NCBI GenBank assembly: GCA_965223545.1
Contig: OZ245006.1
Coordinates: forward strand, 5,344,001-5,408,000
Direction of reading: 5' to 3'
Length of the DNA: 64,000 nt
From: Planctomycetota bacterium
GTDB lineage: Bacteria; Planctomycetota; UBA1135; UBA2386
Part shown: piece by piece, positions 1-56,388 of the stretch
Layout: every line of letters begins with the position of its first letter
Position numbering within the stretch: the first letter of the stretch is position 1
Notes under the pieces: generated by a model
Databases searched by the model: none
The model's input: the letters and a program-made list of their open reading frames with translations, nothing else
Told to the model about the DNA's origin: nothing
Program-made: the position numbers and the translations under genes

Positions 1-396
1 CACGCCGTCTCCGGCACGGCGCAGATTCTGCCGAGCTCATGTGGCGCCAGCGGCCGTTCACCAACGCTCTATGCGACTCCGCCAATCCTCGGCAAGACGC
101 TCTCGCTCACCGGACACGACACGGTTGCGAACGGCGCGGGAGCCGTCCTCATCTCCGCGCCGGGTCCCACCATCACGCTGGCCGGTGGCTGTTCGACGCG
201 GCTGCATCCCCTGACCATGGCGGTCGTGGCGACGCCGTCGACGGACATCGCCGGACGCTGGTCGGCGAGCTTGGCGATCCCCAACTTGGCTGTGCTCCAG
301 AGCGTCCCGGTCCTCGTGCAGGCCGTGTTTGGGCCCAGCACGGCCCCGCCCCGCGCCGATCTCACGCCCCCCGTCCTGCTCATCCTGGGCCGCTGA
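1..396 (+). CDS. C-terminal end of an ELWxxDGT-repeat protein paralog (5' truncated by window edge)
   Basis: Frame +1 reads HAVSGTAQILPSSCGASGRSPTLYATPPILG...PRADLTPPVLLILGR* (TGA 394-396), colinear with the C-termini of 878-3949 and 4159-7249. Confidence 0.9.
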   Translation, partial: HAVSGTAQILPSSCGASGRSPTLYATPPILGKTLSLTGHDTVANGAGAVLISAPGPTITLAGGCSTRLHPLTMAVVATPSTDIAGRWSASLAIPNLAVLQSVPVLVQAVFGPSTAPPRADLTPPVLLILGR

Positions 397-506
397 CCGA
401 AGCTCGTCGATGGCGACGGGTTCGCTGCTGGTCGCGCTACAGATCGTCCTCGAAGCGCTATAATGGCGCCGTTCCGCACGACGCGGAACGGAACGAGGAG
501 TTGCCC

Positions 507-881
507 ATGCCCACAGACCTCCCGATCGTTCCCGATCGTTGGCTCCCACGCGCGGTTCTCGCGCTCGGATTCTGGTCGTCCGCGCTCACCGCGCAAGTTC
601 CCCCCAAGCTCCTGCTCGACCTCTATCGCACGCTCGGCACGCCTGGGAGCACGGTCCTCGCCGCAGACTTGGTGCCCGGCATGAACAGCTCGTCGCCGAG
701 GGCATTGATTGCGGCCGGCTCGCAATTGTTCTTCCTTGTCGATCACCCACAGTACGGAGTCGAGCTGTGGGCGACGGATGGGCAGTCCACTCCGACGATG
801 CTCCCGCTGTCGCCCACGTTCCGAGTTTGTCGCCAACAGTCGCGCGCCATGCCGAGCGACGCATTGACTCGTTGCCCGTGA
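507..881 (+). pseudogene. Internally deleted, truncated ELWxxDGT paralog remnant
   Basis: ATG 507, signal peptide ...SALTAQ, then VPPKLLLDL joins directly to YRTLG (about 36 codons present in the paralogs are missing). One ELWATDG repeat follows and homology ends near 803. Confidence 0.75.
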
Positions 882-3800
882 ATGCCTCGTCTGCGCCTCG
901 CCGCGTCCTGGTCCAAGCGCTTCTCGCGCTCGGTGTCGCTGAGTGCCCGCTCAGCGGGCAAGTCGCTCCCCGGCTCTTGCTCGACCTGAACCAATCTCCT
1001 GTCGGCGTTCCGGGGTCGTCGTCACCGGCTGACTTCGCGCAGCTGGGAAGCTGGGTCTTTTTCCGGGCGCACAACCCGCTCGTTGGCGACGAGCTGTACA
1101 GAACTCTCGGTGTGTCCGGAAGCTCGGTCTTGGCGGCAGACCTCGATCCTGGAGTGGGCAGTTCCTCACCGATCTCTCTGACAGTTTCCGGTGCACGGCT
1201 GTACCTCGCGGCGACTTCTCCGCAGAACGGCAACGAGCTCTGGAGTACGGATGGGCAATCGGCTCCGGCAGTCGTTTCCGATATCTACGTCGGCTCGGGC
1301 TCGAGCCAACCGGCGGATCTGATCTCTGCGGGCGGCGCGTTGTTCTTCTCCGCGGACGACGGTGTCAGCGGCAGAGAGCTGTGGAGATCGGACGGCACGG
1401 CACAGGGGACCTGGCTGGTGCGCGACATTGGCCGCGGTTCACTCGATTCGGATCCCAGCCCGCTCGGCGAGCTCGGCGGAAGGCTGCTCTTCTACGCGTT
1501 TTCGAGTGCGACCGGCAACGAGCTTTGGACTTCTGATGGCACCGCGAGGGGGACGTCGCTCGTCCGTGATATCAATCCCGGCACTGCCTCGTCGAACGGC
1601 GGCGATGCCGCCGCCCTGGGCAGCTTGCTTTTGTTCTCCGCCGACGATGGCTCCGCTGGTCGCGAGCTGTGGGGCTCTGACGGCACGACCGCCGGCACGT
1701 TCTTGGTGCGCGACATCCGTCCCGGAATAGGGTCTTCGTCGAGCCCTGCGGGTCTGACACGGGTCGGCAATCGCGTGTTCTTCAGTGCCTTTGATGGGGT
1801 GAGCGGGCGTGAGCTGTGGTCTACGGACGGTACCGCTGCGGGTACGAGCATGGTTGCCGACATCGCTCCTGGAACTTCCCATTCCAACCCCGCGTGGTTC
1901 GCTGCCCTGAACACGTCGGTGCTGTTCGCCGCGTGGGGAGCCTCTACTGGCAACGAGCTGTGGATCAGCGACGGAACTGCCGCTGGGACCCGGATGGTGG
2001 TCGATCTGAGACCGGGAACCGTCAGTTCGCGCCCGACGCGAATGACCACGGTGGGAAACCGCGTGTTCTTCCGAGCAGATAGTGGCGCCGGCCAGGGGGG
2101 AGAGTTGTGGGTGACCGACGGCACGGCTGCCGGCACGGTTTCTCTCGGTGATCTGCGCCCTGGCGCTACGTCGTCTTCGCCCGACAATCTTTTCGCGTAC
2201 GGTCAGCGTCTTCTGTTTTCCGCCAATGACGGCGTGAGCGGCACCGAGCTTTGGGGATCAGACGGCACCGCCGCGGGAACGAATCAGGTCGATGACCTTT
2301 CCACCGTCGGGACCGCGAGTGCGCGGATCTCCGACGCGGTCGCTTTGCACGGCCGAACCTACTTCAGCGCCGACGATGGTGTGGTCGGCTCCGAGCTGTG
2401 GGCGACGGATGGAACCGCAGCCGGAACGACGCTGGTGCGGGACATCGTTGTGGGCAGTGGTGGAGCGAGTCCCAGCTCCTTCACGCGCGTCGACGACGTG
2501 TTCTACTTCGCCTCGTCCGATCCGCTCCTCGGCCCAGAGCTCTGGGTCAGCGACGGGACCGGGGCCGGGACTCGGTTGGTCGCCGACCTGGTGCCGGGAT
2601 CCGGTGGGGCGCGGCCAACCGATCTCGTTGCTTTGCGCAGCCGTGTGCTGTTCAGCGGAACGACACCGGGAGCCGGCAGGGAGCTGTGGATCAGCGACGG
2701 CACTGCGGTCGGTACCCAGATGCTGGGCGATTTGAACCCGGGCCCGGGCGACAGTGTGCCCAGCGGGTTGGCGGCCATTGGCGGCTTGGTGTACTTCGTC
2801 GCGACCACGCCTACAGGGGGGGGCGAGCCTTGGGTCACCGACGGCACTCCGGCGGGCACGGTCCCCCTGCTCGACATCTTGGCTGGTTCGGGGAGTTCTG
2901 CGCCCGATGGGTTCACGCGGGCCGGGCGCTGGGTCGTGTTCGCCGCGCACGACCTTGTCGGCGGCCGAGAGCTCTGGCGGACCGACGGCACGGTGGCGGG
3001 TACGACCCGGGTCGTGGACCTGGTTGCCGGTTTCTTCTCCAGTTCACCGCAATCGATCGTCCGCGTCGGTGAACGCGCGTTCTTCACCGCAACGGTGCCG
3101 CTCGGAGATCGAGAGCTTTGGATCACGGACGGGACTGCGGCAGGAACCTCGCGGGTCGCCGACATTCGTCCTGGGCCCAGCGGCAGCAACCCGGCCAAGC
3201 TGGTGCGACTGGGCAGTCGCGTGGTGTTTGTCGCCGACGACGGTGTCTCCGGCGCCGAGCTGTGGGTTTCCGACGGCACTGCTGCTGGCACTCGCATGGT
3301 CTTGGATATCAACCCCGGCGTCGCGGGCTCTGGGATCGGAGGGTTGACTCCGATCGGCGAGCGGTGGGTCTACTTCACTGCGACGGATGCCAGCGGCGAG
3401 AGTGAGCTCTGGATTTCCGACGGCACGGCGGCCGGCACCACGACGTACGATCTCTCCACGTTGGGGTCCTCGCGTCCGCGTGGTTTTGTCCCAGCTGGTG
3501 ACTACGTCTTCTTCAGTGCACAAGACGCCGCCTTCGGCGACGAACCGTTCGTGCACGACGTCTCCGGCACCGCGCAGGTCCTGCCGAGCTCGTGTGCCGT
3601 CAATGGTCGCGCGCCGACGCTGTACGCGACGCCACCGATTCTAGGGTCCATCGTCGCGATCGCAGGGCATGACACCGTCGCAAGCGGGGGAGGAGTGCTC
3701 CTCCTCTCCGCGCCGAGCCGCGCCATCACGCTGGCGGGCGGTTGCTCCGTGCGGCTCGACCCCGCCACCATGGCCGTGGTGGCGATGCCGACCACCGACC

Positions 3801-3949
3801 CCGCCGGTCGCTGGTCGGCGATGCTGCCGATCCCCAACCTATCGATCCTGCAAACGGTGCCGGTGCTCTTGCAGGCCGCATTCGGGCCCAGCACGGCGCC
3901 GCCGGGCGCCGACCTGACCCCGCCCGTCCTCCTCACCCTGGGCCGCTAG
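878..3949 (+). CDS. Secreted ELWxxDGT-repeat (beta-propeller-like) protein with conserved C-terminal domain
   Basis: GTG 878 overlaps the upstream TGA; hydrophobic leader ending PLSGQ; 18 EL[WY]/EP[WF] repeat units counted by eye. Start codon inferred. Confidence 0.9.
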   Translation: MNASSAPRRVLVQALLALGVAECPLSGQVAPRLLLDLNQSPVGVPGSSSPADFAQLGSWVFFRAHNPLVGDELYRTLGVSGSSVLAADLDPGVGSSSPISLTVSGARLYLAATSPQNGNELWSTDGQSAPAVVSDIYVGSGSSQPADLISAGGALFFSADDGVSGRELWRSDGTAQGTWLVRDIGRGSLDSDPSPLGELGGRLLFYAFSSATGNELWTSDGTARGTSLVRDINPGTASSNGGDAAALGSLLLFSADDGSAGRELWGSDGTTAGTFLVRDIRPGIGSSSSPAGLTRVGNRVFFSAFDGVSGRELWSTDGTAAGTSMVADIAPGTSHSNPAWFAALNTSVLFAAWGASTGNELWISDGTAAGTRMVVDLRPGTVSSRPTRMTTVGNRVFFRADSGAGQGGELWVTDGTAAGTVSLGDLRPGATSSSPDNLFAYGQRLLFSANDGVSGTELWGSDGTAAGTNQVDDLSTVGTASARISDAVALHGRTYFSADDGVVGSELWATDGTAAGTTLVRDIVVGSGGASPSSFTRVDDVFYFASSDPLLGPELWVSDGTGAGTRLVADLVPGSGGARPTDLVALRSRVLFSGTTPGAGRELWISDGTAVGTQMLGDLNPGPGDSVPSGLAAIGGLVYFVATTPTGGGEPWVTDGTPAGTVPLLDILAGSGSSAPDGFTRAGRWVVFAAHDLVGGRELWRTDGTVAGTTRVVDLVAGFFSSSPQSIVRVGERAFFTATVPLGDRELWITDGTAAGTSRVADIRPGPSGSNPAKLVRLGSRVVFVADDGVSGAELWVSDGTAAGTRMVLDINPGVAGSGIGGLTPIGERWVYFTATDASGESELWISDGTAAGTTTYDLSTLGSSRPRGFVPAGDYVFFSAQDAAFGDEPFVHDVSGTAQVLPSSCAVNGRAPTLYATPPILGSIVAIAGHDTVASGGGVLLLSAPSRAITLAGGCSVRLDPATMAVVAMPTTDPAGRWSAMLPIPNLSILQTVPVLLQAAFGPSTAPPGADLTPPVLLTLGR

Positions 3950-4158
3950 CAGGCCGTTGAGAACGTGCTTCGTCTCGCAACCCGGTGATTCTCGATGCGG
4001 GTCGGTGCGCGAGAACGCAGGCGAACCAGTGGATTCGGCGAGGCTTTCGCGTGCCGAGCCGCGCGGGCAGCGCCGGGTTGTGGGGCGAATCACCTTTTCA
4101 ACCGCCTGCTGATCGAACCAAGCTGGTTTTTCTCGCAACGCGCGCCGCGGAGCGGCAC

Positions 4159-7100
4159 ATGACGGTGAGTATGCTCGCGATCCTCTCGTTACGGCACACC
4201 GTGTTCTCGGCGCGGCTCCTTATCGGATTCGGCGTGGTCGGCGGCACGCTCGCCGCGCAGGTCCCCCCCCCGGCTCCTCCTCGACGTCAACCCGACCCCG
4301 CTCGAAGTCTGGAGATCGTCTACACCCTCTCCGTACGTTTCGGCGGGCAGCTGGGCCTACTTCGCGGCGAACAACTCGAAGGTGGGCACCGAGCTCTACC
4401 GCACGCTCGGGGTCCCCGGCAGCACGTTCCTGGTGGGTGACTTGGTTCCCGGTGCAGGCGGCTCGCATCCCAGGTCTCTGACGACGGTCGGTTCTCGGCT
4501 GTACTTCGCGGCGGATTCCGCTCAGCTCGGAACCGAGCTCTGGAGCACCGATGTCCCGACCGGTCCGGCGATGATCGCCGACATTCGTCCGGGCGCGGGG
4601 TCGAGCCTGCCGACCGACCTGTTCTCGGTGGGGAACGTGCTGTTCTTCGCCGCGGACGACGGCTCGACCGGGCGGGAGCTGTGGAGATCGGACGGCACCG
4701 CGTCAGGCACGGGGTTGGTGCGGGATATCGCGCGCGGAACTCTCGATGCGAATCCCGTTCCACTCGCGGAGCTGGGCGGGAGGTTGATGTTCTACGCGGA
4801 AGCGAGCGCGACCGGCAGCGAGCTCTGGGTCTCCGACGGCACCTCGGTGGGAACCTCGCTCGTCCGCGATATCAATCCTGGCCCGGAATCATCGAATGGC
4901 GGGGAAGCCGCTGCCTTCAATGGCGTGGTGCTGTTCGTCGCGGACGATGGCGTCGTCGGTGCCGAGTTGTGGGTTTCGGATGGGACCGCAGCCGGCACGT
5001 CCCTGGTGCGCGACATCGATCCGCGAACCGGCTCCTCATCGAGTCCCCAGGACCTCACCGTCGCCACCAACCGGGTTTTCTTCAGTGCCGATGATGGGGT
5101 CAACGGCCGCGAGCTGTGGTGTACGGATGGCACCCGCGCCGGCACGCGAATGGTCGCGGACGTGGCTCCGGGACCGTCATCCGCGACGCCCAAGTGGCTG
5201 GTGGCGATGGGATCGTCGGTTCTGTTCGCGGCTGCGAACCCTGGTAGCGGGACCGAGCTGTGGATCAGCGATGGTACCGCGGTGGGCACGCGGCAGATCA
5301 CCGACTTGAACCCTGGACCTCCTGACTCCAACCCGACCCGGATGACCGTCGTGGGCAACCGCGTGTTCTTTCGCGCGGACAATGGCGGGGGCCAGGGCGA
5401 GGAATTGTGGGTGACCGACGGCACCGCCACCGGGACCGTGTCGCTGGGCGACATCCACCCCGGCAACCAGACGTCGTCAGCAACGCGTCTGCACGCGCAC
5501 GGCAGGCTCCTGCTGTTTTCTGCGAACAACGGCCTGACAGGGAAGGAGCCTTGGGTGTCGGACGGCACGATCGCGGGAACGGAGCAGGTCGCGGACCTCA
5601 GTACGACGGGGTCGGCGCACTCCGGAGCGACCGGTGGCATCGCGATGCACGGGCGCAGCTACTTCACTGCCGACGATGGCCGCGTTGGAATGGAGCTCTG
5701 GGCCACCGACGGCAGCGCGGGTGGCACGGCGCTCGTGCGTGATATCAACTTGGGCGTCGGTGGGGCGCATCCTTCGGGCTTCACGCGCGTCGGCGACGCG
5801 TTCTACTTTGGTGCGACGGGTCTGCGCAGTGGCACGGAGCTCTGGGTCAGCGATGGGACCACGGCCGGGACCCAAATGGTTGTCGATTTGGTGCCCGGCA
5901 CCGGTGGGTCGAGCCCCACTGAGATCGTTGCAATGCGGGGGCGTGTTCTCTTCAGCGCCGAGACCGCGGCGACGGGTCGCGAGTTGTGGGGAAGCGATGG
6001 CACGGCAGGCGGAACGCAGTTGCTCAGCGACATCGACCCGGGGCCGGGCCACGGCGCGCCCGACGAGCTGGTGGCCATCGGGGATCGGGCGTACTTCTCC
6101 GCGACCACTCCCGCCGGGGGTAGGGAGCCATGGGTTACCGATGGCACGCAGGGCGGCACGACGCGACTGGTCGACGTCTTCGGCGGCTTAGGCAGCTCGG
6201 ACCCCGCTGGCTTTACGCGCGCCGGGCGATGGGTGGTCTTCGCCGCGCTCGACTGGCAGGGGGGGCGGGAGCTTTGGCGAACCGATGGTACTCCGAGCGG
6301 CACGGCACGCGTCGTCGACCTCGCGCCCGGCGTGTTCTCGAGTGGGCCTCGGTCGATGGTCCGCCTCGGGGACCGGGCGGTCTTCACCGCGGAGGCTCCC
6401 CTGGGTGATCGGGAGCTGTGGATCACCGACGGAACGGCGGCTGGAACTGCGCGGGTTGCCGACATTCGCCCAGGCCCGGCAGGAAGTGACCCCACGGCGC
6501 TGGTGCGGCTGGGGAGTCGCGTCGCGTTCGTCGCTGACGACGGGGTATCGGGCGCCGAGCTCTGGGTCTCCGACGGCACTTCTGCGGGGACGCGAATGGT
6601 CCTGGATCTGAATCCAGGCGGCGCGGGCGCGGGCATCGCGTCTCTGACGCCGATCGGTGAGCGATGGGTCTACTTCAGCGCGGACGACGGCAGCGGAGAT
6701 CGGGAGCTGTGGGTCTCGGATGGCAGCGCCACCGGGACGGCGAAGTTCGATCTTTCGGCGCTGGCGTCCTCGAACCCGCGTGGGTTCGTCCTCGCCGGCA
6801 ACCACGTGCTGTTCAGCGCCATCGATGCGATGGCCGGCCACGAACCGTTCGTGCATGCCGTCTCCGGCACGGTGCAGACACATGCCAGCTCGTGTGGTGC
6901 AAGCGGCCGGTCACCGACGCTCTATGCGACGCCGCCGATCCTCGGCACGACCTCCGCGCTGACCGGACACGACACCGTCGCGAACGGCGCCGGAGCCCTG
7001 CTGCTCTCCGCGCGGGGTCGTGCCATCACGCTGGCGGGTGGCTGCTCCACGCGCCTGGACCCCGCGACCATGGCTGTCGTGGCGACGGCGACGACGGACG

Positions 7101-7249
7101 CCACCGGTCGCTGGTCGGCAGTTCTGCCAATCCCCAACCTGGCGGTGCTGCACAGCGTCCCCGTCGTGGTGCAGGCCGCGTTCGGACCCAGCGCGGCCCC
7201 CCCGCGCGCCGACCTCACGCCGCCCGTCCTCCTCACCCTAGGCCGATAA
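4159..7249 (+). pseudogene. ELWxxDGT-repeat protein with a +1 frameshift in a C9 tract (4263-4271); phase-variable gene or sequencing error
   Basis: The signal peptide MTVSML...TLAAQ (ATG 4159) is in a different frame from the body (ORF 4382-7249). Removing one C gives QVPPRLLLDVNPTP...WAYFAANNSKVGTELYRTLG, matching the paralog QVAPRLLLDLNQSP...WVFFRAHNPLVGDELYRTLG. Confidence 0.85.
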
Positions 7250-7285
7250 ACTGAAGGTACGGAGCCAGGCTCCGTACCTTCAGTT
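7249..7285. repeat. Perfect 18-bp inverted repeat, REP-family variant; possible bidirectional terminator
   Basis: AACTGAAGGTACGGAGCC-A-GGCTCCGTACCTTCAGTT between convergent genes, overlapping both stop codons. Confidence 0.85.
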
Positions 7286-11045: not shown

Positions 11046-11566
11046 CCGGAGGTGCCCGAGCCGTGGTCGCACTCGCGGTCGCAATGCTCGTCGTCGGGGG
11101 TCTGCAAGTCAGTGCTGGGGGCAGCGAAGACGTGCCTACCGCTGTCGCTGGGGCGGGTCTCGCGCGGGGCGCGCCGACCGGATGGACCCCATCGGGGAGC
11201 GTGCCGTCACCTGCGCCACGGCAGATCGTGACGCGTCGCTCGCAAAGGGCGGTAGTCGTGGATCTGCCGGCTGCCCTTGGACGGGTGGTGCACGTGCGCG
11301 GCGTCGCCCGCCGCGGGGGCCTTCCCGCGACCCTGACCGAGATCTGCTTAGTGCCCGCGGGGGACGGTGGCGATGGGCTCCAGCGGAGTGCCGACTGGGA
11401 CCTGACCGACGCGCAGGGGCAGTACGACGTGAGGCTGCGACCTGGAGACTACATCCTGTGTGCCGAAGGGTCGGTCGACCGGCGACTGGTGTCGATCGAC
11501 GTGCCCCTCGTGGGCTCAGCGGATGGTGTCAGCCAGGACATCGATCTCAGCGCGGGCCGGCAGTGA
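11042..11566 (+). CDS. Membrane-anchored protein with a carboxypeptidase-regulatory-like beta-sandwich
   Basis: GTG overlaps the upstream stop (GTGA); hydrophobic N-terminus; TDAQGQYDVRLRPGDY motif. Confidence 0.6.
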   Translation: MTGGARAVVALAVAMLVVGGLQVSAGGSEDVPTAVAGAGLARGAPTGWTPSGSVPSPAPRQIVTRRSQRAVVVDLPAALGRVVHVRGVARRGGLPATLTEICLVPAGDGGDGLQRSADWDLTDAQGQYDVRLRPGDYILCAEGSVDRRLVSIDVPLVGSADGVSQDIDLSAGRQ

Positions 11567-12394
11567 AAGCTCGACGAGCACCGGATGGTGGTCCGAAGGA
11601 AACCGGCCCTCGATGCGACCGTTGTCGATGATGGCCGAGTGCAGCGCGAACCCTTCGGTGCACAGGATGTGGTCGATGCGCTTGCTTCCCTGTGAGTCGA
11701 AGCCGTTGAAGGTGCCCTCGCCCGATCGGTCGGGGTGCACCTCGCCATAGCAGTCGCGGAAGCCGGCGGCCTCGAGCGCGCGCAGCGGCGGCGCGGTTTC
11801 TGTTGCGTTGAAGTCGCCGAGCAGGATCAACGGCAGGGCGCGCTGTTCCGTCCACCGCTGCAGCAGGCGCGCGCTCTCGAGCCGCGCCCGCTCACCGCGG
11901 TGGTCGAAATGAACGTTGGCGACGACCAGGCGTGCACCGGAGCGGCGGTCGCGCACGCGTGCCCACGTACAGATGCGGGTCAGCGCAGCGTCCCAGCCCA
12001 CTGCCCCCGGGACCTCCCGGTCCGGCGCCAGCCAAAACGTGCCGTGTTCTTCGACCTTGAGGCGGTCCTTGCGCACGAACAGAGTGCACGCCTCGCCACC
12101 ACCGTCGGCATCCCGGCCGCGGCCGTGCGCGACGAACTCCGGCAGCGCAGCCTGCAGCTCACTGGCTTGGAACGGCAGGACCTCTTGTGTGCCGAGGATG
12201 TCCGGCGCGTGCCCGCGAATGCTCGCGATCACTCGCGCCCCACGCATCTGCCAGTGATCCTCCCCGTCGGCGGCAGTGCCGTAGCGGATGTTGAACGTCA
12301 TCACCCGCAGCCGCTCGCCCTCCTGCGCACACCCCGCCAACGCCAACAGAACGTACGGAGTCAGGCTCGATTTTCTCGCTACCGCGTTCCTCAT
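11516..12394 (-). CDS. Endonuclease/exonuclease/phosphatase (EEP) family lipoprotein
   Basis: RVMTFNIRY, GTQE, NVHFDH, LLGDFNA, RIDHI and PSDHHPV motifs; lipobox LAGC. Confidence 0.92.
   Translation of the reverse strand: MRNAVARKSSLTPYVLLALAGCAQEGERLRVMTFNIRYGTAADGEDHWQMRGARVIASIRGHAPDILGTQEVLPFQASELQAALPEFVAHGRGRDADGGGEACTLFVRKDRLKVEEHGTFWLAPDREVPGAVGWDAALTRICTWARVRDRRSGARLVVANVHFDHRGERARLESARLLQRWTEQRALPLILLGDFNATETAPPLRALEAAGFRDCYGEVHPDRSGEGTFNGFDSQGSKRIDHILCTEGFALHSAIIDNGRIEGRFPSDHHPVLVELSLPARAEIDVLADTIR
12353..12380 (+). repeat. REP-like repeat copy inside the 5' end of the EEP gene
   Basis: GTACGGAGTCAGGCTCGATTTTCTCGCT, identical to 49973-50000. Confidence 0.9.
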
Positions 12395-12417
12395 GCTGCA
12401 TCCAACCCCGGCGCTGC

Positions 12418-14397
12418 TTAGCGCACCCGCAGTGACCAAGTGTTCGACGTTCCCGCGACCCCGCCAGGTGCGCGAGTGTCGAGAACGACGCTTGCGGTGT
12501 GCAGAGCGATTCCGCGCAGGGCAGCAAGCGGTGGCACGGTCAACGCGGGCGAGGCGTTGCCGCCGCCGTCGAGGACCGCCACATAGCCCGACAGGATCGG
12601 AGACGTCGCCCCGAGAGTCGCCGCCAGCAAGGCGTCGGCATCGAGCCTCAGCAAATGCGGTCCCCATAGCAAGGGGCCGAGCCCGAGCGATGTCCCGGTG
12701 ATCGCGAGCTTGCCGGCATAGGCGCGTGCGTGGAGCGCGAAGCCGACCGGTGCACCCGGCGCCGGCGCGTCGCCGCCCTCGAGCCGCACGGCGCGGCGCA
12801 GCTCGAGCACGCTCAGGTAGCCGAACCCGGGGTTGCTGGTCCCGCTGCTCACCTCCAACGCCAACACTCCGCGAGCGTCGGGTTGAACGTCGGTGAAGGT
12901 CAACACCAGGTTGAGGTTGTGGGCGGCGTCGAGAGTCTGGGCGGCGAGAGTGCGCACCCCGCGGACGCCGTAGGTTCCCACTCGGGGGTAGGTCGTCGAC
13001 TCGCGCGTGCCGTGCACGATCAGGTCGTAGCGAGCGCTCGGGTCGAGACCGCGCAGCTCGAGCGTACCGCGAGGGTCATCATAGCCGGCGCCGCGCCCGA
13101 CCAAGAATCCGTCGCGCTGCGCGCGCACGTCGTAGAGCGATCCACTGATGTTGACCGCGCCGATGAACCCTCCGTTGGCGCCCCCTCCCGTCGCGCCGGC
13201 GAACGCGTCGACGACCGCCACCTCGATCCCCGTCGGTCGGTTCTCGGTGTCGCGCGCATCCCGCACGCGGCCCGCGGCCGGATCGGCAATCGTGTTGTAG
13301 TGCCGCCCGGCAACCGGCCGCTGCTCGGGACCGACGAGTGGACCGGCCAGGTCGGAGAAGTCGACCAGGACCGCGGATGGCGGAAGCTGTGGGGGTTGGG
13401 CGACCGGCGGCGCAGCCAGCACCTGGTCTGCCCAAGCTGTCAGCTGCGTGCTCTCCGCGCCGGTCACGCCGATCGCCGCGGCGACCGGCTGCAGAACGCC
13501 GCTCGCCGCCAAGCGCTGGGTATCGGCGTCGCCGTAGAGCGTGCCGTAGATGGTCAACGCCGTGAGCAAGTCGCCGCGGCTGCTGGCGTGATAGTGATCG
13601 GCGGCGTAGAGATTGCCGAAGCCACGCCCCCAGTCGGCCGCCTGCCACGCGTCCCCGACCGGCGCGATCAGGGCGCCGGCCGACGGTGCCCGCCGCTCGA
13701 TGAGTCGCTGGGCCTCGTCGTAGCTGCTCCGCACTTCCTCGGCCATCGCGGCCGGACCCGCGAACAGAGGGCCAAGCGTCCAGTTGGCGACCCCGATGGC
13801 GATGTTGTGGCCCGCCGTGTGCGGCGAAGACACGTCGTAGAACCAGTGGTCGGGTTGCCGCGCCCACGCTTGGTAGAGCACCGGCACGACGCCGGGATGT
13901 TTGGATGTGTGGTTGGTCGCGCCGTCGCGCACCTCGTCGAACAACCGCCACGAGTTCTCTTGGTGCAGCCGCGGATTCCCGGTGTATGGGTGCTGCGTCG
14001 AACGCGTGCTGAAGCCCTGCAGGACGACGTAGTCCCAGCTCTCGCCCTCCAGCGCGGGCTCGTCGATGTGCCCCAGCGAAGCCGCGTTCGCCGACAGGTG
14101 GTGGTCGAGGCCGCGATTGAGGTGATAGACGTTCTTGACGAACGGTGCCGGGTGACCTGCGGCGATGGCGATCTGACGCACCAGCTCCGGAACGCCGCGC
14201 GCGCCGCCCCAAGCCGGCGAGTGCACCGCCGGGTTGGACGAGCTGATGGTGTAGCTGTTGCCGAAGAAGAGGACGTTGATGCCCGCGGTGGACGCCGCGG
14301 ATTGCGGCGAGACGAAGGCACCTGGGTTGACGACCTGAGCGGTCACATCGAGCGTTGGCCAGACGGCAGCCGCCAGCCAGAGGGCATGCACGCGCAC
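12418..14397 (-). CDS. Secreted SGNH-like (DUF4886-type) hydrolase with beta-rich module and conserved C-terminal domain
   Basis: Signal ending VTAQ; VLFFGNSYT, WDYVVLQ, APVGDAW and DHYH (DxxH) motifs. Confidence 0.8.
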   Translation of the reverse strand: MRVHALWLAAAVWPTLDVTAQVVNPGAFVSPQSAASTAGINVLFFGNSYTISSSNPAVHSPAWGGARGVPELVRQIAIAAGHPAPFVKNVYHLNRGLDHHLSANAASLGHIDEPALEGESWDYVVLQGFSTRSTQHPYTGNPRLHQENSWRLFDEVRDGATNHTSKHPGVVPVLYQAWARQPDHWFYDVSSPHTAGHNIAIGVANWTLGPLFAGPAAMAEEVRSSYDEAQRLIERRAPSAGALIAPVGDAWQAADWGRGFGNLYAADHYHASSRGDLLTALTIYGTLYGDADTQRLAASGVLQPVAAAIGVTGAESTQLTAWADQVLAAPPVAQPPQLPPSAVLVDFSDLAGPLVGPEQRPVAGRHYNTIADPAAGRVRDARDTENRPTGIEVAVVDAFAGATGGGANGGFIGAVNISGSLYDVRAQRDGFLVGRGAGYDDPRGTLELRGLDPSARYDLIVHGTRESTTYPRVGTYGVRGVRTLAAQTLDAAHNLNLVLTFTDVQPDARGVLALEVSSGTSNPGFGYLSVLELRRAVRLEGGDAPAPGAPVGFALHARAYAGKLAITGTSLGLGPLLWGPHLLRLDADALLAATLGATSPILSGYVAVLDGGGNASPALTVPPLAALRGIALHTASVVLDTRAPGGVAGTSNTWSLRVR

Positions 14398-14451
14398 GGG
14401 ACCTCCTCGAGGGTGGAGTGAGCTGCCGCCAACTTACACCCTGCGCGGCTG

Positions 14452-16149
14452 CTACGGGGGCGTCAGCTCCATCAGGTCCCAGTCCGGCGTGTAGACCTCG
14501 TTCAGCTCCTCACGCAGTGCCGAAAGCACGAGCCGGCCGAACTCGCGGCGCAGCGGCCGGAGGAACTCGGCGCCGGTGCCGTCGTCGATCGCGGTCTGGA
14601 ACTCGGACGGAGCCTCGGGCAGCAGCTCGCGCCAGCGTGTGTGGAACGCCTTGCGCTCCGCCGCGTTGTACGTCCGCTGCGGCTTGACCGGCTGCTGTGC
14701 GAAGCCGAAGTGATCCTCTTTGACCGGGTTGTGCTCCGGCTTGTAGGAGCAGACCTTGTAGCCCCCCTCCGGCGGTTTCACCTTGCGATAGCAGTGCGCG
14801 AACATCTCGTTGGCCGCGGCGGACATCAGCGCGAACCGCAGCCAGAACGTGTAGCCACCGGGTGGCACGAAGTCGTGCTCCGGATCGGCGAGCAGCAGCG
14901 CCAGCTCGGTGAAGCAAAACGCGTTGACCCCGTTCGGCCCGCCGTAGCAGTGGAACGCCGTCGCCTGGCCCGAGCCGAACATGCCGAACCAGTCGCGCAG
15001 CTTTCCCCGCGCGGACGTGGTCGAGCCGGTGAGTAGCCAGGTATGCATTCCGCGTCCGATCTGGCGCACGGCGTCGTCGACTCCCAGCCCGACGAGGTCC
15101 AGCGGCTTCGTGTCCTCGAGCGCGTTGACGGCGGGGCCGTCGCGTCCCTTGTCCTTGGCGTCTTTCCAGCCATCGTCGTAGGCGATTGCGCGTCGCCAAT
15201 ACTGGCGGCTGACGACCACCGCGACGTTGCGAAACGCGGGCCGATCACTGGCCGGCACCAGCTCTTCGAGCGAGTTTTCGTCGACCGTGAGGAGCAGACG
15301 GTGTGCACGCCGGTGCCGCTCACCCTTGCCGGACCGGCTCGCCCACCGGTCGCGCAACGCCACGATGTCCTTGGCGGTGATCTTGCCAAAGTGGCGAATG
15401 AGGGCACCTCTGTCCCGCCACTGAAACCAGTACGGCATGCGGACGTAATGGGGATCGTCCGCGTCGAACTCCCGGCTGTCTGGAGAACGCAGAAGGAAGC
15501 TCCGCGATGCCACGTGCGGTGGGTCGCCGGTGAAGTCAACCTCCAACTGGACGATCGCTGGCAGCGGATCAGTGGGGCGCAGGATGACCACATTGCTCTG
15601 GTTGATTCCAGAAGAGATGGGTATCCCGTCCAGTGATCGCACGTCGATTATCGAAGTCCGCGTTGGGCTGAACGCGATCGCGATCCCCTCGATCTCCGCT
15701 TCCTGGGGGAACCCCTCCGTCTTGGCGGTGCTGATCGCGTAGACGCAAGTGGTCGCGCAGCGAATCGAGATCCAACACTCGCAGTCCTCGTCGCCGCTCG
15801 CCGGCCACGAATAGCCGTCACCGTCTCGCCAGTGGCCCACCTCCCCGGTCGAGTCGACCGACTTCGATTGCGTCAGCGTGAACGACAAGTCTCCGACAAC
15901 CAGAACCTTGTCGGCTGGCGACCACGTGACGTCCGAACTGTCCAGCAGGGCCACCGCCGACGCGACGAGGTCGCCAAAACGGTCGGGTAGTTGGTCGCGG
16001 TTGCGCTGGTCGCAATACTCCGCGATCGTCGCTTCCGGTAGACCGCCGATGACTTCGTTGATCTTCTCGATCAAGTCCTCCAGCAGCGGCCGATCCGCGC
16101 ACGTGGCGGAATCACAAGTGTCGGTCACGATTTCGGCGATGAGGGTCAT
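14452..16149 (-). CDS. Hypothetical protein, no recognisable domain
   Basis: 565-codon ORF with GGAG RBS before ATG 16149; fills the gap between codirectional genes. Confidence 0.75.
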   Translation of the reverse strand: MTLIAEIVTDTCDSATCADRPLLEDLIEKINEVIGGLPEATIAEYCDQRNRDQLPDRFGDLVASAVALLDSSDVTWSPADKVLVVGDLSFTLTQSKSVDSTGEVGHWRDGDGYSWPASGDEDCECWISIRCATTCVYAISTAKTEGFPQEAEIEGIAIAFSPTRTSIIDVRSLDGIPISSGINQSNVVILRPTDPLPAIVQLEVDFTGDPPHVASRSFLLRSPDSREFDADDPHYVRMPYWFQWRDRGALIRHFGKITAKDIVALRDRWASRSGKGERHRRAHRLLLTVDENSLEELVPASDRPAFRNVAVVVSRQYWRRAIAYDDGWKDAKDKGRDGPAVNALEDTKPLDLVGLGVDDAVRQIGRGMHTWLLTGSTTSARGKLRDWFGMFGSGQATAFHCYGGPNGVNAFCFTELALLLADPEHDFVPPGGYTFWLRFALMSAAANEMFAHCYRKVKPPEGGYKVCSYKPEHNPVKEDHFGFAQQPVKPQRTYNAAERKAFHTRWRELLPEAPSEFQTAIDDGTGAEFLRPLRREFGRLVLSALREELNEVYTPDWDLMELTPP

Positions 16150-48635: not shown

Positions 48636-49967
48636 GTGTTGAACGCGGTTCGCCCATCCCCGTCGTCTTCGAGTCTCTGGGTGCTCGTCGTGCTCGGTGC
48701 CGGCTGGCGCGTCGGCGTCGCGGCGCGGACACCGGTGCCGGCGGAGGACGGCGCCAACTACCTCTGGATGGCCGAGCAGCTGGCGCGGGGCGCGCCGTGC
48801 GCGACCCTGGACGCGGTGTTTCCGCCGCTCAACAGCATGGTCTGTGCGGTCGGCGTCGCCCTGCTGCCGTGGCTGGAGCCGTTCCGCGCCGCGCAGCTGG
48901 TGTTGGCAGTGGTCGGCGCGCTGGCGGCCGTGCCGCTGGCCCGCTTGGTCGAGCGCGTCGCGCCCGGCGGTGGGTGGGCGGCGGCCTGGTTGATGGTCAC
49001 CGCGCCGCTGCCGATTCGCTGTGCCGCCGAGATCTACAGTGAGCCGGCCTACCTGCTGTGCGCGTCGATGGCGCTCCACGCGTGGGTGCGCGGCGCGTCG
49101 GGCGCCGCCGGCGCCTGGCTCGGGGCAGCGTCCTGGGCGCGGCCCGAGGCGTTGGTGTTGGCGGGAGCGTTGGCGCTCGCCGCGCCGCGGAAGGCTTGGC
49201 GGATGCTGTGGCCCGTCGCGGTCGCCGCCGCCGTGCTCTCCGCGGCGCGCGCGTTGTGTGGGCACGGGCCGGATCCGATGCCGAAAGCCGGGTTTGTCTG
49301 GGAGCGCACCATCGGGGTGGCGCCGGGGATCGGCGACATGGTCGCCGCGTTCGGCCGGCACGCGCTGCAGATGCCGTGGCTGTGGGTCGAGGCGTTCGCG
49401 ATCTCGGGCGTGCTGGCGGTGTTGGGGGTGTGGCGCGGCGCACTCGCGCACCGGCGCGCGTTCTTGGCAGCGGCCGTGCTGGGGTGTGCGCTGATCTGCG
49501 CGTTCTTGCCGCGCCGGCGCTTCCTCGTCACCTGGCTGCCGGTGGTCCTGCCACTCGCGGTCGCCGGCTTGGGCGCGCTGCCCGCGCGATGCCGCTCCTT
49601 CGTGCTGGCCGCGGCCGTGCTGCTCAACGTCGCGCTCTCGGTGCGCGTCATCGACGCCGACCGGGTCGCCGAGCGCCGCGTCGGCGCCTGGCTCGCGACC
49701 CAGTGTGCGCCCGGCGAGCGGATCACCGGCGACATGACCCGCGTGCTCTACTTCGCCGGCGAACGCCCGCTTCCCCCCAAGCCGTTCACCGCCGAACAGC
49801 TGGCCGACCGCGCCCACGCCGTCCGAGCCCGCTTCGTCGTCCTCGGCGCGCGCCGCCCGACGACCCCCGAAGCTCGGCGCCTCCTCGGCGACTACCGCCC
49901 GCTCCGCCTCCCCCCAGAGCTCGCCGAGCTCGCCCACCGCCGCGGCATCCTCACACTCCACCGCTAG
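48636..49967 (+). CDS. Polytopic membrane protein, GT-C fold glycosyltransferase-like
   Basis: Many TM segments; EDGANY, FPPL, SEP and RPEA motifs. Start uncertain (48612 or 48636). Confidence 0.7.
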   Translation: MLNAVRPSPSSSSLWVLVVLGAGWRVGVAARTPVPAEDGANYLWMAEQLARGAPCATLDAVFPPLNSMVCAVGVALLPWLEPFRAAQLVLAVVGALAAVPLARLVERVAPGGGWAAAWLMVTAPLPIRCAAEIYSEPAYLLCASMALHAWVRGASGAAGAWLGAASWARPEALVLAGALALAAPRKAWRMLWPVAVAAAVLSAARALCGHGPDPMPKAGFVWERTIGVAPGIGDMVAAFGRHALQMPWLWVEAFAISGVLAVLGVWRGALAHRRAFLAAAVLGCALICAFLPRRRFLVTWLPVVLPLAVAGLGALPARCRSFVLAAAVLLNVALSVRVIDADRVAERRVGAWLATQCAPGERITGDMTRVLYFAGERPLPPKPFTAEQLADRAHAVRARFVVLGARRPTTPEARRLLGDYRPLRLPPELAELAHRRGILTLHR

Positions 49968-49968
49968 C

Positions 49969-50050
49969 GAAAGTACGGAGTCAGGCTCGATTTTCTCGCT
50001 TCGCCGACGTGCCGGCGAAGCGAGAAAATCGAGCCTGACTCCGTACTTTC
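49969..50050. repeat. REPIN-like perfect 38-bp inverted repeat with 6-nt loop
   Basis: 49969-50006 is the exact reverse complement of 50013-50050 (loop ACGTGC); lies between convergent genes. Confidence 0.93.
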
Positions 50051-51137
50051 AGATGAGGAAGTGGCAGATGTCGCCGTCTTGCAGGACGTAGTCCTTGCCC
50101 TCGACGCGCAGCTTGCCGGCGGCCTTGATCGCCGCTTCGCTGCGGTGCTCCATCAGATCGTCGAACTGATAGACCTCGGCGCGGATGTAGCGTTTGACGA
50201 AGTCGGTGTGGATGACGCCGGCGCCGACCGGACCGGTGTCGCCCTTGCGGATGACCCAGGCGCGGACTTCCTTCTCGCCGGCGGTGAAGAAGGTCTGCAG
50301 GCCGAGGAGGTCGAAGCCCTTGTGGATCAGTTGGCCGAGCCCCGATTCGGTGAAGCCCAGCTCCTCCATGAACATCGCCCGTTCGTCGCCGTCCATGCGC
50401 ACCAGCTCGGCCTCGATGTCGCCGCACAGGGGCAGCACCTCGCTGCCCGAGCGCGCGGCGTATTCGCGCAATGCAGCGACGTGCGTGCCCTCACCGGCGA
50501 CATCGTCGTCACCGACGTTGGCGACGAACAGCATCGGCTTGACCGTCATCAAGAACAGCGGTTGCAGCGCCTTGAGCTCGAGTGCGCTCCAGGCGTGCGT
50601 GCGCAGGGGTTGATCGGTCTGCAGGTGGTCACGGGCCTTCTCGAACAGCTCTTTCTCCCGCTGGCAGTCCTTGTCGCCGGCGCGCGCCTTCTTCGCCACG
50701 CGCTCGATGTTGCGCTCGAGGGTGGCGAGGTCGGCTTGGCTCAGCTCGAGGTCTACGACCTCGGCGTCGATCGCCGGATCGAGATCGCCGGTGACGTGCT
50801 GCACGCCGCTTTTTTGGAAACAGCGGACGACGTGCAACAGCACGTCCGCCTCTTTGATCGCGCCGAGAAACGAGATGCCCATGCCTTCGCCCTGGCTCGA
50901 GCCCGACACCAGTCCGGGGATGTCGACCACGGTCATCTGCGCCGGCACGATTCGCTGCGTGGGGATGCACTCGGCGATCTTCGCCAGCCGCGGGTCCGGC
51001 ACGTCGACGGTGCCCTGCACCGGACCGGTGGTGCTGAACATGTAGTCCGAACGCTCCACCTCTTGTTGGGTGATGGCGCCGAAGATCGTGGTCTTGCCGA
51101 CGTTGGGCAGGCCGACGATGCCGCATGAAAGGCCCAT
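50049..51137 (-). CDS. ychF: Ribosome-binding ATPase YchF
   Basis: MGLSCGIVGLPNVGK, DIPGLV, TFFTAGEKEVRAW, GVIHTDF, EGKDYVLQDGD. Confidence 0.97.
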   Translation of the reverse strand: MGLSCGIVGLPNVGKTTIFGAITQQEVERSDYMFSTTGPVQGTVDVPDPRLAKIAECIPTQRIVPAQMTVVDIPGLVSGSSQGEGMGISFLGAIKEADVLLHVVRCFQKSGVQHVTGDLDPAIDAEVVDLELSQADLATLERNIERVAKKARAGDKDCQREKELFEKARDHLQTDQPLRTHAWSALELKALQPLFLMTVKPMLFVANVGDDDVAGEGTHVAALREYAARSGSEVLPLCGDIEAELVRMDGDERAMFMEELGFTESGLGQLIHKGFDLLGLQTFFTAGEKEVRAWVIRKGDTGPVGAGVIHTDFVKRYIRAEVYQFDDLMEHRSEAAIKAAGKLRVEGKDYVLQDGDICHFLI

Positions 51138-54260: not shown

Positions 54261-54286
54261 GTACGGAGTCCGGCTCGATTTTCTCG
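54261..54286 (+). repeat. REP-like repeat, single copy
   Basis: GTACGGAGTCCGGCTCGATTTTCTCG (1 mismatch to consensus), 5 nt after a TAG stop, between convergent genes. Confidence 0.88.
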
Positions 54287-54301
54287 GTAGGTCCCGCGCC
54301 C

Positions 54302-56077
54302 CTACGGCGCGCTCACCGCCACCGGTCCGGCGACCCACGGCGCGGCACCGCTCTGGAAAGCGCCCAGGTCGACGACCGGTCCGGGCAAGATCCCGGCGAT
54401 CGGCAGGCCGGCACCCAGCGCGGGGCTGCCGACCAACGGCATGAAGTCGCCGGATGCGCCTGGCATTGCCGGTGGGTCGGCCAGCATCGGGTCGGCGAGG
54501 ATCGCGTTGGCGCCGATCTCGCCGCCCGGGTCGGTGGCCCAGAACAGGTTGTTGTCGACCGAGTTGGAGGCGTAGTAGTTGCCCTGCAGCGCATCCCAGA
54601 TCTCCAACCCCATCTCGGGGGTGTCGAGCACGATGTTGTTGCTGCAAGAGCTGTTGGTCATCGCCACGTCGAGCTGCATGGCCGCCGAAGCGCGGCGCGG
54701 CGCGTGGCATGCCTTGTAGACCACGTTGTTGAAGATGTGGATGTCATCGAGCTCATAGCCGGACAGACCCTCGACGCGCCATTCGTTCCACACCGCGATG
54801 CCCCGCTTGCGGGTCCAGCTGACGACGTTCTCGAATACGCGAATGCCGCTGCTGCGCCCCGATTCGAAGCGCGGTCCACCGAGGTCGCCGTTGGCGACGC
54901 GAATCCCGGTCGCGCCCTTGGCGTGCGCCGGGAATCCTCGCGGCATCGTGTTCTCCAGGTAGACCGCGGCGAGCTGGAGTCCGCCGCCATCTTGCGGGTC
55001 GTACCAGCCGATGTGCCGCACCAGATTGCGGAAGATGTCGGTGTCGTCGCCTTCGTTGCAGTAGATGCCCACGTGGCGGATGTTCTCCACCAAGTTGTGG
55101 TGGATGACGCCGTTGCGCGAACCGAACTTGAAGTCGATCCCCTGCATCATCGAGTTGGATACGTGGTTGCGAGCGATCTCGAAGCCGTCGACGCGCACCA
55201 GCGTGACGGTCTCGGTCGTGTTGCTGAAGCCTTGGTTGTTGGCGCGATCGACGTAGGCACCCAGGTTGGATTGGTTGATGCGCGAGTCGACCAACGAGAG
55301 GTTCTGGATGAACGGGTCGTTCGCGTCACCGTTGGCGAACATCACCGCCGAGTTGCTCACCCATTCGACGAGCATGTGTTCGAAGCTGACGTGTGATGAG
55401 CGCCACGCCAGAACGCCGACACCCGCGATGCCGGACACTTCGATGCCGGACACGGTGACGTAGTTGGAGTTGCTGACCGTGATGCCCCGCGTCAGGTAGT
55501 TGCCGCTGCCGGGCCCGAATCCCGGCGGTAGGTTGGCCTTGTCGAACGGGAAGCTGGCCGCGCCCGCGATGCCACCGTCGATCCGCGCCGGCAGAGGATT
55601 GCCGTTCGCATCGAAGTCGCATTGGATGACCGTCGGCATGTTGGGATCAGGGCTGCCGCCGACTGGATTGTTGATGTAGTTGAGCGACAGGGTCTCGTTG
55701 AAGACGCCGCGCAAGATCAGCTTGTCGCCCCCGCTGCGCGACAGCCGGGTGACCGCTTGCGCCAGGGTGCGCATCGGCGAAGTCGGCGAGGTTCCGTGGT
55801 TGCTGTCGTCGCCGTTCTGCGAGTCGACGTAGAACACGCGGCCGGGGGCGATGCGGGCGGTGAGGCCGGCAGTCGGACTGGTGCTCGGGGCGGTGGTGCT
55901 GCCGCTGCCGCTGGTCGGCGGAGGAGGAGCAGGAGCAGGGGCTTCGCGCGTGCGCGACGGGGTCGGGGCGGGCCCGTCCTGGGCTTGCACGTCGCTCCAC
56001 AAGAACGTGGAGGCAAGAGCGAGGCTGCTGAAGCGCGTCGCCAGGCTCGCGGCCCGGCGCAGTCGTCGATGAAGCAT
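54302..56077 (-). CDS. Secreted right-handed parallel beta-helix (pectin lyase-like) protein
   Basis: Signal ending VQAQ, Pro/Ser/Thr linker, FYVD..NGDD, Asn-rich repeats, DLGAFQ end. Confidence 0.85.
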   Translation of the reverse strand: MLHRRLRRAASLATRFSSLALASTFLWSDVQAQDGPAPTPSRTREAPAPAPPPPTSGSGSTTAPSTSPTAGLTARIAPGRVFYVDSQNGDDSNHGTSPTSPMRTLAQAVTRLSRSGGDKLILRGVFNETLSLNYINNPVGGSPDPNMPTVIQCDFDANGNPLPARIDGGIAGAASFPFDKANLPPGFGPGSGNYLTRGITVSNSNYVTVSGIEVSGIAGVGVLAWRSSHVSFEHMLVEWVSNSAVMFANGDANDPFIQNLSLVDSRINQSNLGAYVDRANNQGFSNTTETVTLVRVDGFEIARNHVSNSMMQGIDFKFGSRNGVIHHNLVENIRHVGIYCNEGDDTDIFRNLVRHIGWYDPQDGGGLQLAAVYLENTMPRGFPAHAKGATGIRVANGDLGGPRFESGRSSGIRVFENVVSWTRKRGIAVWNEWRVEGLSGYELDDIHIFNNVVYKACHAPRRASAAMQLDVAMTNSSCSNNIVLDTPEMGLEIWDALQGNYYASNSVDNNLFWATDPGGEIGANAILADPMLADPPAMPGASGDFMPLVGSPALGAGLPIAGILPGPVVDLGAFQSGAAPWVAGPVAVSAP

Positions 56078-56388
56078 GCGCGGTCTCCGGTGTTGTGCAC
56101 CCCGCGGCCGCGCACGCCGCGCCCGGCACCGCGCCGGCGTCGTGCATGAGACGGACTCGAAGGGGCTGCTGCGTTTCTCGACAGCGAGATCGGACGCGGC
56201 TGTCGGATTCCGAAGCAGTGGCGTGCGCGTTCGTGTCAAAACGGGACTCGCGGCGCCGTGACCAGCGGCGCAGAGTGCTCCAAATCGAGACGAGGCCGGC
56301 ATGGCGTGCTGCGTACGGAGACGATCGGAGTCGAAAGAGGGAGCGGCGGTGGGGTTCGCGGGGCACCTCTTGCCGCCGGGAGAAGTGG

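Follow-up and report, generated by a model that had tools for sequence, protein, structure and literature searches.

In-frame intragenic REPs, N-terminal ones included, are surveyed in section 15 of Di Nocera et al. 2013 (PMC3733652), and RPEs occur in Rickettsia genes, where the one in gmk was considered either neutral or mildly harmful (reviewed in PMC2229807). In Yersinia YPO1552, an RU-2/YPAL element makes up residues 1-30 of a 41-residue predicted signal (Delihas 2007, PMC2759123), and a repeat inside a predicted signal peptide is thus an already published phenomenon; the word 'lipoprotein' is absent from the main text of that paper. TIRtrons/TIRYTs combine a Y1 HUH transposase gene with flanking inverted repeats that are unrelated to GTAG REPs (Di Nocera et al. 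2013, PMC3733652), and Table 1 of Quentin et al. 2018 (PMC6006769) equates TnpAY1 subclass 2.1 with Bertels group 1. The portions of the TIRtron/TIRYT literature that we drew on, from PMC3733652 and PMC6006769, hold no mention of coding TIR copies.

The case that we describe here comes from a window of 64,000 nt (the whole stretch of DNA that was analysed) and is of this known kind: a dispersed 28-nt repeat encodes part of the predicted signal peptide of an EEP lipoprotein. Like intragenic REPs and RPEs, which are often found near the N-terminus, it is a small mobile repeat in frame. Intragenic REPs, however, are GTAG/CGTC hairpins and RPEs span 100-200 bp, whereas here a non-palindromic singlet of 27-28 nt lies in what is predicted to be a cleaved lipoprotein signal; a 28-nt singlet has neither the length (100-200 bp) nor the long stem-loop and terminal inverted repeats of a Rickettsia RPE or MITE. 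Compared with RU-2 in YPO1552, the EEP repeat adds polar and basic residues to the SPII signal of a conserved enzyme family. A search of titles and abstract openings, with most subscription journals outside its scope, returned no report of a TIR-type repeat in a lipoprotein signal, and Additional file 3 of PMC3733652 may list signal-peptide cases. We put at about three in four the probability that a mobile repeat inserted here recently and in frame, and that it is tolerated and does not improve export.

An in-frame repeat in the gene of a predicted EEP lipoprotein

The gene (11516-12394, minus strand) is intact and encodes a predicted 292-aa lipoprotein of the EEP phosphatase/nuclease fold (PF03372, E 9e-21). 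Read on the minus strand from the ATG at 12394, its frame gives MRNAVARKSSLTPYVLLALAGC and the protein begins MRNAVARKSSLTPYVLLALAGCAQEGERLRVMTFNIRY; the gene as called in the database encodes this same protein of 292 aa. The invariant residues of the EEP family are kept, and the structure model shows a DNase I-like fold (mean pLDDT 89). The protein matches PDB 3g6s (E 3e-43, residues 29-278) and 4c1r (E 3e-37, residues 29-251), a subgroup labelled mannosyl-6-phosphatase, from which it differs in having a predicted lipoprotein signal. The labels of several of its homologues suggest that the host is probably a planctomycete. Upstream, a co-directional gene for a 659-aa protein with no Pfam match (12418-14397, minus strand) stops 23 nt before the EEP ATG, and no sigma-70 promoter match was found in 11300-14700. 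At the other end of the gene, the segment encoding the C-terminal tail (11516-11566), which has low model confidence, shares 51 nt with the last part of a called gene on the opposite, convergent side.

When 12321-12420 was compared with the intergenic doublet in 49900-50100, the longest exact match was 28 nt, from 12353 to 12380, and it was found on both strands of the doublet; the earlier note was right to report an exact 28-nt copy of an intergenic repeat inside the EEP gene. This copy, a singlet unit of what we call family A (12353-12380, plus strand), equals the genome-wide consensus with zero substitutions and has no second repeat arm nearby. It was also described as antisense within the first 14 codons, encoding (A)RKSSLTPY, and we find the same: repeat positions 1-27 coincide with codons 6-14 (12353-12379, minus strand), which encode ARKSSLTPY wholly from the repeat and in codon register. 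The in-frame repeat is real. The ACCGC that follows it (12381-12385, plus strand, inside codons 3-5) may belong to the element rather than to the host, and the same tail follows 5 of the 25 copies in which its first position is also A (p about 3e-5).

Two candidate traces of the insertion process were rejected. AC stands on either side of the EEP copy, as in a target-site duplication; this arrangement is seen in 6/129 copies, and no 5' dinucleotide is more frequent than AC (48/129). Inverted 5-mer flanks, as might remain from a second arm, occur in 3/95 singlets where 1.8 would be expected (P 0.29).

Elsewhere in the window, the same repeat forms the intergenic doublet (49969-50050, not assigned to a strand), a perfect 38-bp hairpin between convergent genes with units at 49973-50000 (plus) and 50019-50046 (minus), and an intergenic singlet 5 nt past a stop codon (54261-54288, plus strand) that differs from the EEP unit at 2 positions. 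The window also holds a short palindrome made of the ends of a sister repeat, family B, directly past a stop codon (7252-7282), paralogous genes in tandem at a distance of 3.3 kb that consist of repeats of 144-147 nt (1-7249), and a divergent pair of beta-helix protein genes, inverted paralogues whose arms are 79-84% complementary (54302-58227).

Family A and its associated transposase

Scanning all 8.1 Mb of the genome (2 contigs) with position weights, at a threshold of at least 20 bits, we found 129 family A copies, 26 of them exact, 95 singlets and 34 clustered. As 2 Mb of shuffled sequence gave 0, the family is not a product of chance. The unit starts with GTAC, each column of which is kept in at least 125 of the 129 copies. 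The repeat had been called REP-like, and this holds in part: it is dispersed and forms REPIN-like doublets, with a doublet hairpin of -50.9 kcal/mol (z -16), but the single unit lacks both the GTAG tag (the 5' GT[AG]G at the hairpin foot of a canonical REP) and a hairpin, and it flanks a Y1 transposase gene. Folding of single units gave -1.0 and -1.4 kcal/mol (z 0.64 and 0.13) and no stem of 7-20 bp, and the sole dyad in the unit is an internal GAGTC-N-G(A/G)CTC. Doublets often have flanks that repeat one another in inverted orientation, over as many as 17 nt.

The Y1 HUH transposase gene, at C1:1729868 (PF01797, 37.6 bits against a cut-off of 23; motifs THFH and YIDHNP), is flanked by an inverted pair of 35 bp that is 94% identical and lies 49 nt before the start. 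Related transposases are present in 18 of 64 genomes of the same taxonomic family, and at 15 of these 18 loci we found the locus's own flanking inverted match of at least 17 bp, three of them starting with GTAC. With as many as 3 mismatches allowed, family A itself was found in 0 of 200 further genomes of the order, and a GTDB contig scan gave no exact match, in both cases among genomes in which repeats are often unassembled.

The reading frame of the C1:1729868 transposase is open to codon 1075, running through its own right-hand repeat and then antisense to the neighbouring gene, while its relatives end after 330-386 aa; the excess length would reflect the loss of a stop codon or a fault in the assembly. 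A second Y1 transposase (C1:3913071-3916400, 333 aa) is 46% identical to the first, and its inverted ends are those of family B, of which a 30-nt seed finds 46 copies and a 25-nt seed 89. IS110-family sequence adjoins both ends of this second locus and appears to split the family B repeats.

In kind, the family A unit agrees with the inverted repeats of TIRtron-type Y1 transposases, and in this genome it is associated with one. Y1 transposases mobilise their repeats, and by analogy this one would bind, cut and move family A. We place the system probably in the TIRtron/TIRYT class, subclass 2.1 of Quentin et al. 2018 (PMC6006769); a 'group 2 RAYT' label for the transposase was rejected on Table 1 of that paper. 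As described for TIRtrons, a Y1 HUH gene lies between inverted repeats, the copies are dispersed as singlets, dimers and clusters, and the transposase has a long C-terminal tail, here with a weak HTH match (Sigma70_r4_2, two matches, both below the cut-off, E 0.034 and 2e-4). Compared by eye, the core GGAGTCAG matches 7 of the 8 positions of GGGGWSAS, a motif of some TIRtron members. Unlike the TIRtrons described there, family A has 129 copies with a GTAC outer end, and its transposase carries THFH and YIDHNP in place of the TIRYT-listed NH[YF]H and Y[IV]HLNP and is about 330 aa long against a TIRYT median of 238. The system also shares with REPIN-RAYT systems, as presented in PMC5581495, the inverted doublets with long hairpins, the singlets, the low-copy transposase and the IS110-family interruption. 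It differs from them in that the family A unit is itself no hairpin and in that the two Y1 transposases score 57 and 64 bits against NF047646, under its 80-bit cut-off.

Copies of family A keep close to gene borders. In 51/129 copies the GTAC end lies between -1 and +7 nt from a called stop, and in 53/129 the nearest called feature at that end is a start codon. By a simple gene caller only 6/129 copies are wholly intragenic, in a genome that is about 89% coding; the EEP copy is missing from these 6 because the caller chose TTG17 as the start of the EEP gene.

Where translation starts

Translation very probably begins at the ATG at 12394, since the N-termini of homologues are hydrophobic, Met32 lies mid-strand and no other usable start precedes Cys22. 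From the upstream stop as far as Met32, the frame contains the start-type codons ATG1, CTG11, CTG16, TTG17, TTG19, CTG29, GTG31 and ATG32, and ATG1 is the sole ATG between that stop, 23 nt off, and Met32. Initiation at codon 16, 17 or 19, between the repeat and Cys22, would put no more than 6 residues ahead of the Cys, and the earlier view that no good alternative start lies between repeat and lipobox stands. A downstream start at MTFNIRY, which the earlier note had named as the outcome that would overturn its reading, is unlikely on the comparison of EEP N-termini proposed along with it: a hydrophobic N-terminus is present in 112/119 homologues and a lipobox in 55/119, and the structure model puts Met32 in the middle of beta-1 (strand 28-35). 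Among 118 homologues, one of the 119 having no anchor motif, only 1 falls short of 12 residues ahead of the position that aligns with Met32, and 38 have Leu, Thr, Val or Ala there instead of Met.

A Shine-Dalgarno-like GGGGT (12405-12409, minus strand) stands 10 nt before the ATG. Its duplex with the genome's own 16S tail (-6.1 kcal/mol) is at least as strong as that of 75% of 1304 called starts, and the start context ranks at the 47th percentile when set against called starts and at the 95th when set against non-starts; as the reference starts come from an in-house caller, these rankings are approximate. The mRNA structure over this start is average.

We consider it unlikely that the native 5' end was cut off, or that the repeat lies in a 5' UTR, in which case the ATG at 12394 would be a chance occurrence and a start at GTG31 or ATG32 would yield an unexported, truncated enzyme, or the gene would be a young pseudogene. 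A Shine-Dalgarno-like motif upstream of GTG31 would suit such a start with a duplex of -7.8 kcal/mol, against -6.1 for the ATG at 12394, although its spacing is about 14 nt. Codons 1-9 also score poorly as coding, mostly negative under the codon model, with codons 1-5 ranking in the bottom 7% among 133 lipoprotein-like genes from the same genome, and the in-house codon-model caller picked TTG17. The 53/129 copies whose GTAC end faces a start codon point the same way, as does the remark that N-terminal REPs are often misannotated UTR copies (PMC3733652). Yet the VLLALAGC segment between the repeat and codon 31 is intact and has a positive coding score, and a start at codon 31 or 32 would remove 3-4 residues of strand 28-35. 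Moreover, the 112/119 homologues with a hydrophobic N-terminus are predicted to be exported, the invariant family residues are kept, and an in-frame ATG within 5 codons on the same side, which 6/129 copies have when the EEP copy is included, occurs by chance in about 4% of the others (5/128).

Composition and probable history of the predicted signal peptide

Under a PROSITE-type lipoprotein rule, K or R stands in the first 7 residues, followed by an uncharged run and a lipobox Cys at 15-35. The predicted Sec/SPII signal peptide of the EEP protein (12329-12394, minus strand; residues 1-21, plus Cys22 at 12329-12331) agrees with this rule in having Arg2 and Arg7, 13 uncharged residues, the lipobox LAGC and Cys22, and residues 12-20 are helical in the structure model. 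From what is known of the Lgt/SPII pathway, Cys22 would be lipidated. The repeat-encoded SSLTPY contributes 6 of the 13 uncharged residues before Cys22. The repeat had further been said to supply basic residues of the n-region; it does supply Arg7 and Lys8, but Arg2 lies outside it, so other charge exists.

Mean hydropathy of the 10 residues before Cys22 is 1.52, a value below that of 52/55 homologous lipoproteins and in the lowest 16% of the 133 lipoprotein-like genes of the genome. If codons 6-14 are left out, the Cys becomes residue 13, preceded by ten uncharged residues with a mean hydropathy of 2.13. Such a signal would be ordinary, as 11 of the 55 lipobox homologues have their Cys at 13-14. 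If codons 4-14 are left out instead, with the ACCGC tail counted as element, the Cys falls at residue 11, earlier than in any of the 55, and with a host remainder that short, replacement of native codons would be favoured.

Protein searches found no close EEP orthologue, the best homologue standing at 51%. Among 40 relatives the best EEP match was 50%, and the repeat was absent from all 14 top loci scanned; JGI metagenomes likewise held no close orthologue, giving 5 loci at 44% at most. Across 4 of 10 listed runs of other studies there was no empty site or repeat-bridging joint, only identical short records, and a flank search within the genome gave one tandem paralogue pair, none of it empty. 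The second paralogue site, considered as an empty site, was rejected as it holds a family B repeat. At C1:3710950-3712030, two tandem paralogues have a repeat in the identical place, 5 nt past the stop codon, one of family B and the other of family A. We infer the pre-insertion state because no orthologue above 51% and no empty site was found; as against replacement of native codons, the addition of nine codons to a 13-residue native signal would be the simplest history.

In the model that we favour, the Y1/HUH transposase of this genome would spread a 28-nt non-autonomous unit, the one that flanks the transposase gene as an inverted pair. Most family A copies lie at gene borders, and one recent copy has entered the EEP gene a few codons in, leaving the reading frame open. 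With initiation at the ATG at 12394, the Arg-Lys of the repeat would close the n-region and SSLTPY would extend the uncharged stretch to 13 residues before Cys22, so that the insertion would have remodelled the signal peptide. The Sec/SPII rule would still apply, leading to export, lipidation and cleavage, and the repeat-coded residues would be discarded. The insertion would then persist because a cleaved signal peptide tolerates repeat-coded residues, and not through better export.

The earlier note had gone further and called the repeat domesticated. That it replaced or rescued a defective native signal, with selection keeping Arg-Lys and SSLTPY for export, seems to us highly unlikely. Without SSLTPY, only 7 uncharged host residues would follow Lys8 in the present allele, and were the ACCGC tail part of the element, the Cys11 remainder would make the repeat structurally required. 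Against this, the copy is without substitution, Arg2 already provides charge, Pro13 and Tyr14 remain within the helix, hydropathy ranks close to the lowest among the homologues, and the absence of the family from 200 other genomes of the order leaves no cross-species retention to cite. Domestication would be marked by retention across lineages and by adaptive divergence from mobile copies, and the EEP copy shows none of the latter. With 0 changes from the consensus, a lowered h-region hydropathy, Arg2 outside the repeat and a best homologue at 51%, the description as domesticated is not borne out; the repeat belongs to the signal through where it lies, and its sequence shows no mark of selection.

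An assembly artefact, in which a mis-join at the repeat set it beside the EEP gene, is extremely unlikely: multi-copy repeats can cause mis-joins, and no record in 4 of the 10 listed runs bridged both sides of the EEP copy, but the contig is 8.07 Mb long and the repeat merely 28 nt, four runs of one study (possibly the source data) hold 99-100% of the sampled words of 11400-13000, a 151-nt record from another study equals 12256-12382 with 0 differences and spans the lipobox-to-repeat junction, and the frame is open through an ATG.

Other coding copies in the genome occupy linkers or termini. A BioF-BioD-BioA-like triple fusion, named from its Pfam domains (C1:1339437-1342580, 1047 aa), carries a family B repeat in frame in its first linker, which has 64 residues against 51-57 in the 7 of 11 relatives with a measurable linker, a net gain of 7-13 residues. 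Relatives of this protein share the first fusion, and their frames close about 200-230 residues later. At C1:1688091, the residues SERIEPDSVL come from a family A copy and lie in the linker immediately ahead of a Ser/Thr kinase domain; alignment with a paralogue shows no net gain in length there. On insertion versus replacement, the BioF-BioD and kinase linkers thus point both ways. There are also two possible N-terminal coding copies in the ARKSS frame, one at C1:3715513 in a 416-aa protein (gene at C1:3715418; one weak match in 64 genomes, no Pfam match) and one at C1:5014160 in a sulfatase with an alternative GTG start 4 codons past the repeat.

It is possible, though doubtful, that native signal codons were replaced and export of the EEP protein now depends on the repeat, and that TIRtron repeats are a routine source of protein segments in this lineage. 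If so, the new segments would be the signal peptide described here, the kinase linker, the BioF-BioD linker and the read-through tail of the transposase, and the genome would be a natural test bed for a 27-nt non-palindromic repeat that inserts with deletion of host DNA. If, as we favour, the EEP copy is a recent and tolerated in-frame insertion, it would be a clean example of a cleaved signal peptide serving as a safe landing place for mobile DNA, and it would extend coding insertions to the little-studied TIRtron repeats, with no new function implied.
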